Shown here piece after piece: positions 1,601 through 4,828 of a stretch of DNA of 4,828 nt. Under the pieces are notes generated by a model, which did not search any database, was not told the origin of the DNA, and was given only the letters and a program-made list of their open reading frames with translations. Numbering within the stretch: position 1 is the first letter of the stretch; every line of letters starts with the position of its first letter. Origin of the DNA: a virus (Duplodnaviria; Heunggongvirae; Uroviricota; Caudoviricetes); IMG/VR virus record IMGVR_UViG_2681813264_000007; one strand, 5' to 3'. Both the position numbers and the translations under genes were made by a program.

Positions 1601-1981
1601 ATGACCGAGCGCATAGAATTTGTTTTACCTTACCCGCCGACGGTGAACACTTACTGGCGTCGTCGTGGCAGCACATATTTTGTATCAAAAGCCGGTGAGC
1701 GTTATCGCCGTGATGTGGCGCTTATTGTTCGCCAGCAGCGGCTGAAATTAAGCCTGTCCGGAAGGTTGGCAATAAAAATTATTGCAGAACCACCGGATAA
1801 GCGCCGCCGTGACCTGGACAATATTCTGAAAGCGCCGCTGGATGCGCTGACGCATGCGGGGTTGCTAATGGACGATGAGCAGTTTGATGAAATCAATATC
1901 GTTCGTGGTCAGCCAGTATCTGGTGGACGTCTGGGGGTGAAGATTTACCCCATAATGCATGAAGAGCAGGTCAAAAAATGA
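1601..1981 (+). CDS. rusA: Crossover junction endodeoxyribonuclease RusA (Holliday junction resolvase)
   Basis: 126 aa. The N-terminal LPYPPTVNTYWRRRG and the acidic catalytic segment PDKRRRDLDNILKAPLDALT match the RusA family signature (E. coli RusA is about 120 aa). The start ATG directly follows the upstream stop (TAAATG) and the stop overlaps the next start (ATGA). Confidence 0.9.
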   Translation: MTERIEFVLPYPPTVNTYWRRRGSTYFVSKAGERYRRDVALIVRQQRLKLSLSGRLAIKIIAEPPDKRRRDLDNILKAPLDALTHAGLLMDDEQFDEINIVRGQPVSGGRLGVKIYPIMHEEQVKK

Positions 1982-2797
1982 AACTGGAAGATTTACCGAA
2001 ATACTACTCCCCAAAATCCCCCGGCCTGACTGATGCATCGGCCTCAACGTCGAAAGATGCGCTGAGTATCACTGATGTGATGGCCGCGCAGGGCATGACA
2101 CAGAATCGGGCTGAGATGGGGGTTTCTGCGTTCCTTGGGAAAATGGGCATTAGTATGAATGACAGAGAGCGGGCAACAGAATTGCTGACAGAATATGCAC
2201 TCAGTCGGTGTGATCGCGTGGCGGCGTTAAGAAAACTCCCGGCAGAAATAAAACCGGCAGTGATGCGTATTATGGCTTCGTATGCGTTTGAAGATTATGC
2301 CCGTAGCGCGGCGAGCAAAAAACAGTGCCCCTGCTGTCACGGAAAAAAATTTATTGAAAGCGAGGTTTTTACAAACAAGATCCAGTATCCGGATGGTAAG
2401 CCGCCGGTATGGGCAAAGTGTACGAAAGGTGTGTATCCGTCTTACTGGGAAGAATGGAAAAAAGTCAGGGAGGTGGTAAAAGTTGCCTGTCCGGAGTGTG
2501 GCGGAAAGGGTGAGGTTTCCACCGCCTGTAAGGATTGCCGTGGGCGTGGTGTCGCCATTCATCGTGAAGAGTCGGTAAAACGTGGTATGCCTGTTATCAG
2601 AGACTGCCAGCGTTGTGGTGGTCGTGGCTATGAAAGACTACCATCAACGGAGGCATTTAATGCTATATGCGAGGTGACAAACCAGATAACACGCGCGTCA
2701 TGGGAAAAAACAGTTAAGAAATTTTATGATGCGCTGGTGACCCGGTTTGATATTGAAGAAGCATGGGCTGAGCGGCAGTTAAAAAAGGTAACTAGGT
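1978..2797 (+). CDS. Late-gene antitermination protein Q (QuuQ/phage-21-82-like family), 3' end truncated by the N-run
   Basis: At least 273 aa, with four CxxC pairs in DnaJ-like CxxCxGxG spacing (CPCCHGKK, CPECGGKG, CKDCRGRG, CQRCGGRG). It sits immediately downstream of rusA and upstream of a tR'-like terminator and the late-region cargo, which is the canonical Q position. The ORF enters the N-run, so the true stop is unknown; the track's end at 2904 is an artefact of translating N as X. Confidence 0.7.
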
Positions 2798-2839
2798 NNN
2801 NNNNNNNNNNNNNNNNNNNNNNNNNNNNNNNNNNNNNNN
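2798..2839. other. Run of 42 ambiguous bases (assembly gap or masked sequence)
   Basis: Directly visible as n characters. The true length and content are unknown. By lambdoid gene order the Q stop codon, the late promoter PR' and the qut site are expected here. Confidence 1.
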
Positions 2840-2876
2840 ATGGGCGTTTTATGCCTGACGTTAGAAGAGTTTCTAC

Positions 2877-2902
2877 AACCCGCCGCCGAGCGGGTTTTTT
2901 AT
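2877..2902 (+). terminator. Rho-independent terminator, tR'-like (late-operon terminator subject to Q antitermination)
   Basis: GC-rich stem CCCGC (2879-2883) pairing with GCGGG (2890-2894), 6-nt loop, then TTTTTT (2895-2900). Positioned just downstream of Q, as tR' is in lambdoid phages. Confidence 0.65.
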
Positions 2903-3020
2903 GACTGAAATCGCGTCAGTACAGTAAACGCGCTGGTGGCGGTGAATACCTGTCTTTCAGCTTGCTGGCTTTTTCGACAAGAGTTATTGGTGTGTCACGT
3001 TAACCGGAAAAGGAAAAGAC

Positions 3021-3218
3021 ATGCTAAAACAGCAGGATATGACAGAAACCGCCAGAGTGGTGTTTAATGAATTAAGCGTTACCGAACCGGCGACAGTCGG
3101 GGAGATAGCGCAGAATACTTACCTTTCACGCGAACGCTGCCAGTTAATACTGACTCAGCTTGTTATGGCGGGTCTGGCAGATTATCAGTTCGGTTGTTAC
3201 AGACGCCTTCCGCAGTGA
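3021..3218 (+). CDS. Small winged-helix-like DNA-binding protein (65 aa), hypothetical regulator
   Basis: Good SD, AGGA (3011-3014), 6 nt before ATG 3021. The segment TVGEIAQNTYLSRERCQLILTQLVMAGLA has the hydrophobic/Gly pattern of small wHTH regulators (AsnC-N-terminal, PapI/FaeA-like). Family assignment is by pattern only. The stop TGA lies inside a terminator hairpin. Confidence 0.55.
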   Translation: MLKQQDMTETARVVFNELSVTEPATVGEIAQNTYLSRERCQLILTQLVMAGLADYQFGCYRRLPQ

Positions 3219-3230
3219 AGGCTTTTTTAT
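3205..3230 (+). terminator. Rho-independent terminator overlapping the stop codon of the 65-aa ORF
   Basis: Stem GCCTTC (3205-3210) pairing with GAAGGC (3217-3222), loop CGCAGT, then TTTTTT (3223-3228). Confidence 0.6.
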
Positions 3231-3245
3231 TTGTGGTAAATGGGC

Positions 3246-3276
3246 GGCTGGTGGGTGTTAGGGGCACCCACCAGCC
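3246..3276. repeat. Perfect 12-bp inverted repeat with 7-nt loop, carrying a Chi octamer in each arm
   Basis: GGCTGGTGGGTG (3246-3257), loop TTAGGGG, CACCCACCAGCC (3265-3276). GCTGGTGG is on the + strand at 3247-3254 and on the - strand at 3268-3275. No T-tract follows, so it is not a classical terminator. Confidence 0.9.
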
Positions 3277-3317
3277 ATCTGCTCATGCGTTGGGTTCACA
3301 AGCAAACCTCAGGCCCA

Positions 3318-3336
3318 CTGCTTTGCGCAAAAGCAG
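3318..3336. repeat. Second hairpin / near-palindrome in the methyltransferase leader
   Basis: CTGCTTT (3318-3324) pairs with AAAGCAG (3330-3336) around the loop GCGCA. The core TTTGCGCAAA (3322-3331) is a perfect DNA palindrome. Confidence 0.7.
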
Positions 3337-3368
3337 AATGAGCCTATCAGAGACAGGCTTAATGATCC

Positions 3369-4427
3369 ATGCTTAATACTGTAAAAATATCCAGTTGTGA
3401 GTTAATCAACGCCGACTGCCTGGAATTTATCCGGTCGTTACCCGAAAATTCTGTTGACCTGATAGTCACGGACCCGCCGTACTTTAAAGTGAAGCCTGAG
3501 GGCTGGGATAACCAGTGGAAGGGCGACGATGATTACCTGAAGTGGCTGGACCAGTGTCTGGCGCAGTTCTGGCGGGTACTGAAGCCTGCCGGAAGTCTTT
3601 ACCTGTTCTGTGGTCATCGCCTGGCATCTGATATCGAAATCATGATGCGTGAACGCTTCAGTGTGCTGAACCATATTATCTGGGCGAAGCCGTCCGGACG
3701 CTGGAACGGATGCAACAAGGAAAGCCTGCGGGCGTATTTCCCCGCCACAGAGCGCATTCTGTTCGCGGAACATTATCAGGGGCCGTATCGTCCGAAAGAT
3801 GCCGGGTATGCGGCGAAGGGCAGTGCACTGAAACAGCATGTGATGGCCCCGCTGATTTCTTACTTTCGTGATGCGCGAGCTGCCCTGGGGATAACGGCAA
3901 AACAGATTGCAGATGCCACAGGAAAGAAAAACATGGTGTCGCACTGGTTCAGTGCCGGTCAGTGGCAGTTGCCGAATGAAAGCGATTATCTGAAATTACA
4001 GGCGCTGTTTGCCCGGGTGGCAGAAGAGAAGCATCGGCGTGGTGAACTGGAAAAGCTCCACCACCAGCTGGTGGATACGTATACCTCACTGAACCGGCAG
4101 TATGCGGAGCTGCTGAGTGAATATAAACATCTGCGGCGGTATTTTGGCGTGACGGTGCAGGTGCCGTATACCGATGTGTGGACGCATAAACCGGTGCAGT
4201 TCTATCCCGGGAAACATCCGTGCGAAAAACCGGCAGAAATGCTGCAGCAGATAATCAGCGCTAGCAGTCGTCCGGGTGACCTGATTGCAGATTTTTTCAT
4301 GGGGTTGGGTTCGACAGTGAAAGCGGCACTGGCGCTCGGGCGTCGTGCAATTGGCGTTGAGCTGGAGACTGAACGTTTTGAGCAGACGGTTCGGGAAGTA
4401 CAGGATTTAGTCAGCCAGAACGGATGA
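3369..4427 (+). CDS. DNA methyltransferase, beta-class N6-adenine/N4-cytosine amino-MTase (N6_N4_Mtase fold), apparently orphan
   Basis: 352 aa. The catalytic DPPY motif lies near the N-terminus (VDLIVTDPPYF, nt 3471-3482) and the AdoMet-binding FxGxG motif near the C-terminus (DLIADFFMGLGSTV). Motif IV before motif I defines the beta permutation. A roughly 130-aa variable region between them is the presumed target-recognition domain. No restriction endonuclease gene is adjacent. Confidence 0.9.
   Translation: MLNTVKISSCELINADCLEFIRSLPENSVDLIVTDPPYFKVKPEGWDNQWKGDDDYLKWLDQCLAQFWRVLKPAGSLYLFCGHRLASDIEIMMRERFSVLNHIIWAKPSGRWNGCNKESLRAYFPATERILFAEHYQGPYRPKDAGYAAKGSALKQHVMAPLISYFRDARAALGITAKQIADATGKKNMVSHWFSAGQWQLPNESDYLKLQALFARVAEEKHRRGELEKLHHQLVDTYTSLNRQYAELLSEYKHLRRYFGVTVQVPYTDVWTHKPVQFYPGKHPCEKPAEMLQQIISASSRPGDLIADFFMGLGSTVKAALALGRRAIGVELETERFEQTVREVQDLVSQNG
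4061..4074. repeat. 14-bp perfect palindrome CCACCAGCTGGTGG containing Chi on both strands, inside the methyltransferase CDS
   Basis: Direct reading: CCACCAGC (4061-4068, Chi on - strand) overlaps GCTGGTGG (4067-4074, Chi on + strand). It encodes the H-Q-L-V-D stretch of the methyltransferase. Confidence 0.9.
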
Positions 4428-4429
4428 TA

Positions 4430-4458
4430 TTGAAGAATTAATTACGCGTCGTTATTAT
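4430..4458 (+). promoter_or_regulatory. Candidate sigma70 promoter for the tRNA cluster
   Basis: TTGAAG (4430-4435), 17-bp spacer, TATTAT (4453-4458), then a GC-rich discriminator GCGGCTCC. The predicted start lies a few nt before the first tRNA at 4468. Motif-based only. Confidence 0.45.
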
Positions 4459-4467
4459 GCGGCTCCC

Positions 4468-4543
4468 GGCCCTTTAGCTCAGTGGTGAGAGCGAGCGACT
4501 CATAATCGCCAGGTCGCTGGTTCAAATCCAGCAAGGGCCACCA
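4468..4543 (+). tRNA. ileZ: tRNA with CAT anticodon, most likely tRNA-Ile2 (lysidine, AUA-reading; ileX/ileZ-like) rather than tRNA-Met
   Basis: Manual cloverleaf: acceptor GGCCCTT pairs with AAGGGCC; D-arm GCTC/GAGC; anticodon loop CTCATAA (CAT at 4501-4503); T-arm GCTGG-TTCAAAT-CCAGC; discriminator A; encoded CCA. The anticodon arm GCGACTCATAATCGC resembles E. coli ileX. The symbol is by analogy with the ileZ-argN-argO trio of Stx phages and is tentative. Confidence 0.8.
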
Positions 4544-4550
4544 TCACATA

Positions 4551-4627
4551 CCGCCATTAGCTCATCAGGAAAGAGCGCCAGCCTTCGAAGCTGGCTGCGC
4601 GGGGTTCAAGTCCCCGATGGCGGTCCA
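4551..4627 (+). tRNA. argN: tRNA-Arg, anticodon TCG (reads CGA/CGG)
   Basis: Manual cloverleaf: acceptor CCGCCAT pairs with ATGGCGG (C1:G72); D-arm GCTC/GAGC; anticodon stem CCAGC/GCTGG with loop CTTCGAA (TCG at 4585-4587); T-arm CGGGG-TTCAAGT-CCCCG; discriminator T; encoded CCA. The symbol is by positional analogy only. Confidence 0.75.
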
Positions 4628-4640
4628 TTATCTGCATCAT

Positions 4641-4717
4641 GCGTTGTTAGCTCAGCCGGACAGAGCAATTGCCTTCTAAGCAATCGGTCACTGGTTCGAA
4701 TCCAGTACAACGCGCCA
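4641..4717 (+). tRNA. argO: tRNA-Arg, anticodon TCT (reads AGA/AGG; argU-like)
   Basis: Manual cloverleaf: acceptor GCGTTGT pairs with ACAACGC; D-arm GCTC/GAGC; anticodon stem ATTGC/GCAAT with loop CTTCTAA (TCT at 4675-4677); T-arm ACTGG-TTCGAAT-CCAGT; discriminator G; encoded CCA. Resembles E. coli argU. The symbol is by positional analogy only. Confidence 0.8.
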
Positions 4718-4731
4718 CACTTATTTTCCCT

Positions 4732-4757
4732 GGCTCGCTTTTGCGGGCCTTTTTTTT
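4732..4757 (+). terminator. Rho-independent terminator after the tRNA cluster
   Basis: Stem GGCTCGC (4732-4738) pairs with GCGGGCC (4743-4749) with one G-U pair, loop TTTT, followed by eight T (4750-4757). Confidence 0.7.
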
Positions 4758-4828
4758 AAATGTCTCACAATTCAGACGGTTGACAGTTGTCTGTTTTGCG
4801 GGGAGTTTGTTAAAAGAAACTGGCATGG

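Follow-up and report, generated by a model that had tools for sequence, protein, structure and literature searches.

An ileZ-argN-argO tRNA cassette followed by STnc100-family sRNA sequence in a toxin-free prophage remnant of Shigella sonnei type

Background

Does a trio of tRNA genes for rare codons, found in the late region of a prophage, announce a toxin operon, or does it form a module of wider use? The question was raised by a 4,828-nucleotide stretch of Caudoviricetes DNA (IMG/VR record IMGVR_UViG_2681813264_000007; this whole stretch is called the window here), in which ileZ, argN and argO are found shortly before the end of the sequence. The cluster was reportedly first described by Plunkett et al. 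in 1999, in phage 933W. A literature search for ileZ, argN and argO returned nothing relevant among the papers it covered, and a paper on helper-embedded satellites (PMC10111431) had no bearing on the cassette.

The window very probably carries this known cassette as it occurs in the late region of lambdoid prophages of the Stx type; the prophage is in this case a toxin-free and decayed S. sonnei remnant, in which the cassette would contribute to codon supply. Everything found was of kinds already known, namely a tRNA cassette, an sRNA family, an esterase/lysis arrangement and a prophage degraded by IS elements.

Origin of the window and prophage context

The window was identical to the whole of a 4828-bp draft contig (CXDE01000201.1, assembly GCA_001246585.1), so that its end is an assembly break. 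A run of 42 N (2798-2839) probably marks a scaffold gap and not masked sequence. Draft accessions of the CX type belong to the S. sonnei collection of Holt et al. 2012 (PMC5447701), so that the window's assembly probably comes from that collection as well. The methyltransferase gene of the window was encoded unchanged on many complete chromosomes, including that of S. sonnei 53G (HE616528.1), and these displayed 99.7% identity over the whole window and 100% across 4430-4828. Downstream sequence was read in such closely related complete genomes and not in the source assembly; positions in the 53G locus (L008) are converted to window positions by subtracting 4632. Stx-free prophages of E. coli (UTI89, S88, APEC O1 and an O121 strain) displayed 96.7-97.4% identity over 2840-4828, and no complete E. 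coli genome exceeded 97.4%. An exact scan of a contig collection holding one genome per species, with the last 75 nt of the window, gave no match; GTDB merges Shigella into E. coli, which is a likely reason.

Genes in the window were ordered as DUF968, RusA, a Q-type antiterminator, tR', a 65-aa ORF, a DNA methyltransferase and the tRNAs. The Q-type late antiterminator gene (1978-2799, plus strand, 273 aa) was recognised as an open reading frame whose product in S. sonnei loci matched PF03589 (Antiterm); its stop codon, which lies at the border of the N-run, was read from the 53G locus. A tR'-like intrinsic terminator was found by scan downstream of it (2877-2904, plus strand), with a seven-pair stem at 2877-2896 followed by a T-run. 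The N6/N4 DNA methyltransferase gene (3369-4427, plus strand, 352 aa, PF01555), also an open reading frame, ends 2 nt before the -35 hexamer of the putative tRNA promoter, and its counterpart was annotated as a DNA methylase in Stx2 phages and in phiP27. The PF03589 gene and the tR'-like terminator agree with the preliminary description, which had placed the trio downstream of Q and tR'. Its further wording, that this was exactly the place occupied in Stx phages, was loose, since the 65-aa ORF and the methyltransferase gene separate tR' from the tRNAs.

On complete S. sonnei genomes, the locus was a prophage remnant beside ompW, interrupted by IS1 and IS3-family elements. No called genes for integrase, repressor, terminase, head, endolysin or spanin were encountered in the stretches fetched from these genomes. 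A second S. sonnei contig (L016), which shares the exact RusA of the window, displayed a patchy and duplicated layout; it may be a genuine second prophage or may result from misassembly.

The three tRNA genes

ileZ (4468-4543, plus strand, CAU anticodon, tRNA-Ile2 type), argN (4551-4627, plus strand, tRNA-Arg with UCG anticodon, reading CGA/CGG) and argO (4641-4717, plus strand, tRNA-Arg with UCU anticodon, reading AGA/AGG) were all called by ARAGORN. Against the Rfam tRNA model RF00005, for which a full-length cloverleaf was asked in addition to the gathering score of 29 bits, they scored 72.5, 58.0 and 70.1 bits, respectively (E-values 5e-11 to 5e-15). The three genes, in the order CAU, UCG, UCU, share one strand and fit into about 250 bp, and the 3' CCA of each gene could be read from the sequence. 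argN was intact in the window, with no non-standard pairs flagged by Rfam. The trio was thus real and free of pseudogenes, as first supposed, and its designation as ileZ-argN-argO could be kept, ileZ and argO being base-identical to the genes so named in AP012536 and argN a close variant.

The CAU tRNA was labelled Met by ARAGORN, from its anticodon, and tRNA-Ile by PGAP in identical gene copies elsewhere. It shared 68 of 76 positions with K-12 ileX, annotated as tRNA-Ile(CAU); the anticodon loop was the same in both and the eight substitutions were mostly paired stem changes. By these positions, the body of ileZ resembles ileX rather than tRNA-Met. Pairs C4-G69 and C5-G68 were present in its acceptor stem, as they are in ileX (5' GGCCCUU ... 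AAGGGCC 3'), and these two pairs are reportedly determinants of TilS, as described by Ikeuchi et al. in 2005. Decoding of AUA by ileZ would require that this tRNA be modified with lysidine. In contrast to K-12 ileX (tRNA-Ile2, lysidine-modified), the window copy is prophage-borne, with an apparent promoter of its own and putative co-transcription with two tRNA-Arg genes.

Promoter and terminator of the tRNA unit

A sigma-70-type promoter-like site (TTGAAG-17 nt-TATTAT, 4430-4458, plus strand) was retrieved by a consensus scan with nine of twelve matches, at the same place as in the preliminary description. The end of the -10 hexamer is 9 nt from the first tRNA gene; after the hexamer comes a stretch rich in G+C, GCGGCTCCC. 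By itself the match was not above chance, as one site was found and 1.8 were expected from shuffles. The match at 4430-4458 could accordingly be fortuitous and the tRNAs processed solely from the Q-antiterminated pR' late transcript, a reading also favoured by the fact that the cassette belongs to the late transcription unit and follows Q and tR'.

That reading seemed quite improbable in view of the relatives. The match gains weight from its fixed 9-nt distance, its conservation and a published start site. TTG-N17-TAT(T/C)AT was kept at the same spacing in O121, UTI89, Stx2a_1447, Stx2c_PV98 and phage 1717, the last of which has no upstream methyltransferase and an unrelated upstream gene, yet still displayed TTGCAA-17-TATTAT 9 nt before ileZ; retention of motif and spacing beside unrelated DNA argues against a fortuitous match. 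In the Stx2a phage of strain Sakai, a start site which appears to drive these tRNAs was located by dRNA-seq in the corresponding interval, and its 5' end was mapped as primary, not processed, in a lysogenic culture (PMC7547250). A dedicated terminator after argO also makes sense for an autonomous unit. The cassette is therefore likely to possess its own promoter, which would be active at the S. sonnei locus as well.

The intrinsic terminator of the tRNA operon (4732-4757, plus strand) is composed of a stem at 4732-4749, with seven pairs (six of them G-C) and a loop of 4 nt, followed by T8. Scan and folding energy both agreed with its earlier designation: the hairpin folded at -13.8 kcal/mol (z = -4.2), a stability that not one of 200 shuffles equalled. 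It was conserved in all aligned relatives. Two weak resemblances of this terminator, one with AgvB (11 bits) and one with the 3' end of the STnc100 model (15 bits, E 0.15), were attributed to chance. The cassette forms a compact unit of ~330 bp, with a putative sigma-70 promoter, three CCA-encoding tRNA genes and an intrinsic terminator.

Sequence downstream of the terminator

The window ends 71 nt after the T-run, in accordance with the ~70 bp first given. These last nucleotides were nevertheless informative, in contrast to the earlier statement that the next gene could not be seen from the window, as the last ~65 nt already tell the junction type. They include the start of a repeated sRNA unit (4764-4828, plus strand), made up of a conserved upstream part (4764-4793) and of the 5'-most 35 nt (4794-4828) of a gene of the STnc100 family (RF02076), which is cut by the contig end. 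STnc100 is a prophage sRNA family related to PasD, of which the window carries the truncated 5' end alone. The fragment taken alone scored 12.4 bits against RF02076 (E 0.75, model positions 1-35, 3'-truncated; gathering threshold 47 bits), and a cmscan of the window tail alone gave no significant match. The same sequence in S. sonnei 53G extends to a full-length STnc100 gene of 123.6 bits (L008 9426-9615). In the 865 bp after the 53G terminator, a second copy was found at L008 9893-10102 (161 bits) and a weak third one at L008 9654-9827 (30 bits), each copy having its own terminator-like hairpin.

In the S. sonnei type, two to three STnc100 copies stand in tandem directly after the tRNA terminator. 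An 88-nt direct repeat with a period of 467 nt was present in the downstream stretch of 53G, and a 20-mer from the window tail occurred twice in another S. sonnei contig; this repetition probably explains the assembly break at the window end. A promoter scan for the STnc100 copies retrieved none that satisfied its criteria, TTGACA at 4780-4785 having no acceptable -10 hexamer at 16-18 nt. One paper (PMC12370729) located STnc100 at a distance of 75 nt beyond the stx2 operon. The family is also on record from prophage regions and from Stx2 phages, where it follows stx2 (PMC12370729; Zhu, Shabalina & Storz 2026 preprint).

After the sRNAs, complete genomes displayed an esterase of 617 aa (DUF1737/SASA), followed by a class II holin, a DUF1327 protein and, finally, IS elements. 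An IS3-family element was inserted between sRNA copies in six of the eight S. sonnei-type loci that were fetched (L004-L007, L009 and L010). The S. sonnei type would thus read, from the terminator on, as an STnc100 array, a NanS-p-like DUF1737/SASA esterase and a holin, with a lysis cassette apparently cut by IS elements. The same order of tRNAs, two STnc100 copies, esterase (or its remnant) and holin was encountered in E. coli prophages devoid of stx, from ExPEC and from other strains (UTI89, S88, APEC O1, an O121 strain). Those prophages retain endolysin, Rz-like and terminase genes, whereas the S. sonnei version lost them to IS elements.

The toxin question and the empty stx slot

The cassette does lie just upstream of stx in Stx2 phages, ~90 nt before stx2A, in agreement with the preliminary description; in Stx2a phage AP012536, stx2A starts 91 nt after argO. 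An stx operon, or another virulence gene, might hence be expected just beyond the window end, the more so as the arrangement recurs upstream of stxA in Stx2a, Stx2c and Stx2e phages and as Stx1-producing S. sonnei strains exist (PMC5447701). Such a marker role for the cassette was found extremely unlikely here. Matches of the window to Stx phages all ended at query ~1916, which corresponds to window ~4755-4757 in the T-run of the terminator, and the junction alignment diverged from the Stx2a phage directly after this T-run. The stx-free prophages of UTI89, S88, APEC O1 and an O121 strain, on the other hand, matched the window to its last base. The supposition that a toxin might come next was consequently abandoned: the last ~65 nt leave the Stx2 junction and match the stx-free one. 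Nor did the sequence beyond the window bear out the expectation of stx. Where genomes were identical over 4430-4828, STnc100 genes, the SASA-family esterase and the holin came next, and tblastn with Stx2A and Stx2B on eight such genomes revealed no stx remnant (best E > 1). The position directly after argO, taken by stxA/stxB in Stx-converting prophages, was thus devoid of them. The esterase and sRNAs could arguably be considered accessory cargo, but they also occur downstream of stx in Stx phages, so that the tRNAs are not specific predecessors of either.

Comparison with the Stx2a phage located the toxin genes as an insertion. Homology of the S. sonnei type with the locus of that phage (L003) extended up to L003 position 6876 and resumed at 8209, the start of its single STnc100 copy. 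The stx2AB cassette occupies L003 ~6877-8208 (about 1.3 kb), and its flanks abut in the window at ~4757/4761. Since the two flanking elements abut in this way, stx2AB is regarded as a cassette between terminator and STnc100 gene. The alignment indicates that the window is the unoccupied form ("empty site") of the stx2AB slot, with the terminator as left boundary. The locus displays cleanly how stx2AB is inserted between the argO terminator and the STnc100 gene.

Similarity to Stx2 phages was otherwise extensive. Stx2a_1447 (AP012536), WGPS2 (NC_049941) and phage 1717 (NC_011357) shared with the window the order ileZ-argN-argO, the anticodons, the promoter motif with its spacing, the terminator and the place in the late region; Stx2a_1447 and phiP27 also displayed the same 65-aa ORF and methyltransferase upstream. 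The window differed from Stx2 phages by the lack of stx2AB after the cassette, where the terminator abuts the STnc100 unit, by a Q of different type (273 aa, PF03589), by an argN that is a local variant and by its place in a non-inducible remnant.

Distribution in Escherichia coli genomes

Frequencies were surveyed in 5426 complete E. coli genomes. Sequences resembling argO were found at about 8200 places in 2560 of these genomes, with up to 13 places per genome. The junction of argO, terminator and STnc100, as in the window, was present in 1009 genomes, and that of argO, terminator and stx2A in 592. The latter figure lends some support to a toxin marker, but the stx-free junction was the commoner one. 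The cassette is a general module of the lambdoid late region and not a toxin marker, a small minority of its copies preceding a toxin. For genome scanning, the tRNA trio is accordingly no flag for a toxin, the junction type being told by the 60-70 nt that follow the terminator.

Conservation of the cassette

The cassette was aligned for the window, 53G, O121, UTI89, Stx2a_1447, an Stx2c phage and phage 1717. ileZ was identical in eight of nine compared loci when 53G was counted and in seven of eight without it, and the same figures were obtained for argO. Both genes were unchanged in 53G, O121, UTI89, Stx2a_1447 and the Stx2c phage, with small differences in phage 1717 and phiP27. In the Stx2c phage, the surrounding 1.9 kb displayed 81.6% identity, and ileZ plus argO (153 nt) displayed no difference where about 28 were expected. 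Such invariance points to purifying selection on ileZ and argO.

argN behaved differently. Its exact window sequence was common to S. sonnei loci only. Elsewhere it scored 56 bits in O121, 55.9 in Stx2a_1447 and 43.4 in UTI89, where stem changes were seen; in the Stx2c phage (Stx2c_PV98), its anticodon arm was missing. argN was not detected in phiP27, Stx2c_PV98 or L016. Having decayed or disappeared in several lineages, it makes at least one third of the cassette dispensable.

These data bear on whether the cassette is merely a leftover of a dead prophage in S. sonnei, unexpressed or inconsequential, whose persistence is due solely to the youth of the lineage. The prophage, crowded with IS elements, has no endolysin, terminase or head genes, argN was lost elsewhere, and the compared S. 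sonnei loci were nearly identical, which renders their mutual identity uninformative on selection. However, ileZ and argO were invariant over much deeper divergence, the conserved promoter would be independent of phage induction, and all three tRNA genes remained intact while neighbouring phage functions were destroyed; the 35% G+C invasion region of the host, moreover, displayed a high demand for AUA and AGA (see below). A neutral relic is therefore possible, if on the unlikely side.

Codon usage and possible function

Codon values are given per 1000 codons, with 40 K-12 chromosomal CDS as baseline. The latter displayed 3.5 ATA, 1.0 AGA, 0.6 AGG, 2.9 CGA and 5.2 CGG; this low sum of 13.3 bears out the initial remark that the codons read by the trio are rare in E. 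coli. The five phage genes of the window reached 39.4 (ATA 13.7, AGA 6.9, AGG 1.7, CGA 1.7, CGG 15.4), an approximately threefold enrichment over K-12 (odds ratio 3.0, p = 2e-9). Use was higher still in stx2A, with a sum of 87.8 (ATA 47.0, AGA 18.8, AGG 6.3, CGA 6.3, CGG 9.4), and stx2B used none of the five codons. The downstream esterase, with 21.1 (ATA 9.7, AGA 1.6, AGG 1.6, CGA 4.9, CGG 3.2), was not significantly enriched (21 versus 13 per 1000, p = 0.11). The 35 ipa-mxi-spa genes of the 53G invasion plasmid displayed a sum of 62.9 (ATA 33.9, AGA 17.4, AGG 5.2, CGA 3.8, CGG 2.6).

These counts, which are a correlation, fit a role of the cassette in codon supply; the general idea of codon compensation is repeated in PMC7946995. 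Two routes to the tRNAs may be envisaged. One would be the cassette's own promoter, which would also work in a lysogen and in a prophage that is dead; the other, Q-antiterminated late transcription, would be added where the phage is still active. The decoding capacity so provided would cover AUA (ileZ, after lysidine modification), AGA/AGG (argO) and CGA/CGG (argN), codons that are rare in host genes and are encountered three to seven times more often in phage genes, stx2A and other acquired A+T-rich genes.

Phage tRNAs might alternatively stand in for host tRNAs that anticodon nucleases or toxins directed at tRNAs, such as the tRNA-Arg-specific colicin D, have cut or depleted. This idea stems from recent work with other phages; argN and argO, two members of the trio, are Arg isoacceptors. 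Such a counter-defence role was judged very unlikely, as the anticodon arm of ileZ is nearly identical to that of host ileX and would not evade a nuclease targeting the latter, as the codon statistics already offer a sufficient rationale and as the cassette was kept in non-inducible remnants.

Codon supply raises a particular point in S. sonnei, where the prophage is a remnant and no benefit to phage growth is therefore possible. It could be imagined that the dead prophage was domesticated, ileZ and argO being kept, through their own promoter, for the AUA- and AGA-rich type III secretion genes of the invasion plasmid. This proposal is rather improbable, but would imply, if true, that tRNAs of a prophage remnant tune the output of virulence proteins in Shigella. 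More modestly, it may be asked whether dead-prophage tRNAs take part in the translation of A+T-rich virulence genes, a question with which the codon counts are compatible. The ipa-mxi-spa genes used AUA about 10 times and AGA about 17 times more often than chromosomal genes, and the excess in this 35% G+C region concerned AUA and AGA/AGG, not CGA/CGG. A demand of this kind suits ileZ and argO, the conserved pair, and not argN, which is decaying, and the lack of a CGA/CGG excess in the invasion genes agrees with the dispensability of argN.

Prophage context and downstream region

In the S. sonnei-type chromosomes (L004-L011), what adjoins ompW is the remnant of a prophage. Insertions of IS1 and of IS3-family elements were encountered upstream, among the sRNA copies (9837-10993 in L004) and 3' of the gene for the DUF1327 protein. 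No endolysin, spanin, terminase or head genes were found over the whole of these loci; tail or tail-fibre assembly genes came directly next.

Between the tRNA terminator and an esterase gene, two to three tandem sRNA units of the STnc100 family (RF02076) were detected (4764-4828 in the window, whose contig end cuts into the first unit, and 9396-10102 in L008, the corresponding locus of S. sonnei 53G). These units displayed a repeat core of 88 nt and a period of 467 nt, and each contained a terminator-like hairpin. A promoter scan of these copies returned none that passed its criteria. The window also displayed a 59-aa ORF on the minus strand (4647-4826), antisense to argO, to the terminator and to the beginning of the sRNA gene. 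This ORF is most likely spurious. At the corresponding place in E. coli (L001 8974-9099), PGAP labels a partial pseudogene.

tRNA genes and codon usage

Comparison with L002, L012, L013 and L016 indicated that argN (UCG; 4551-4627) is the unstable member of the tRNA trio, whereas ileZ and argO were constant. The argN of UTI89 displayed mismatches in its stem, that of an Stx2c phage had lost the anticodon arm, and the gene was not detected in phiP27 or in L016, a second S. sonnei contig. L016 harbored two copies of argO.

Codon usage was examined in the ipa-mxi-spa region of the S. sonnei 53G invasion plasmid (plasmid A; L019 81810-116058), which comprises 35 CDS at 35% G+C. ATA and AGA reached 33.9 and 17.4 per 1000 codons, respectively, against a K-12 chromosomal baseline that is ~10-fold lower for ATA and ~17-fold lower for AGA; CGA and CGG were not enriched.

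Upstream genes and sequence variation

The 42-N run at 2798-2839 probably represents a scaffold gap in the draft contig. The matching segment of S. sonnei 53G is 45 nt long (AACAAGGTTGATTTTTCCGGAATCTGTGGTAAATTCGTCATAACG) and includes the TAA stop of the Q gene. It also holds a possible late promoter (TTGATT and TAAATT separated by 16 nt, with a TG in front), which precedes the tR'-like terminator by ~75 nt. A 308-aa ORF reading through the Ns was rejected as an artefact, the real Q-gene product being 273 aa long.

The 65-aa ORF between tR' and the methyltransferase gene (3021-3218) was conserved in Stx2 phages and in phiP27, where the RefSeq record describes the product as a transcriptional regulator of the TrmB family. 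The stop codon of this ORF lies under a terminator-like hairpin that occupies 3205-3222.

The window showed 13 differences from the S. sonnei chromosomes, all confined to four tight clusters (1696-1714, 1908-1965, 3155-3182 and 3578-3584) in RusA, the 65-aa ORF and the methyltransferase. Its exact RusA was encountered elsewhere only on two short contigs (L016 and L018). This suggests either that prophage copies have recombined or that the draft assembly contains a collapsed, mixed consensus.

Directly 5' of the DUF968 gene, all relatives displayed a type I toxin-antitoxin hok/sok locus, with Rfam hits to sok of 112-120 bits and an annotated hokD, located upstream of the window's start at 3936-4111 in L001, 3934-4108 in L002 and 4268-4443 in L004. 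The first bases of the window appear to overlap its end.
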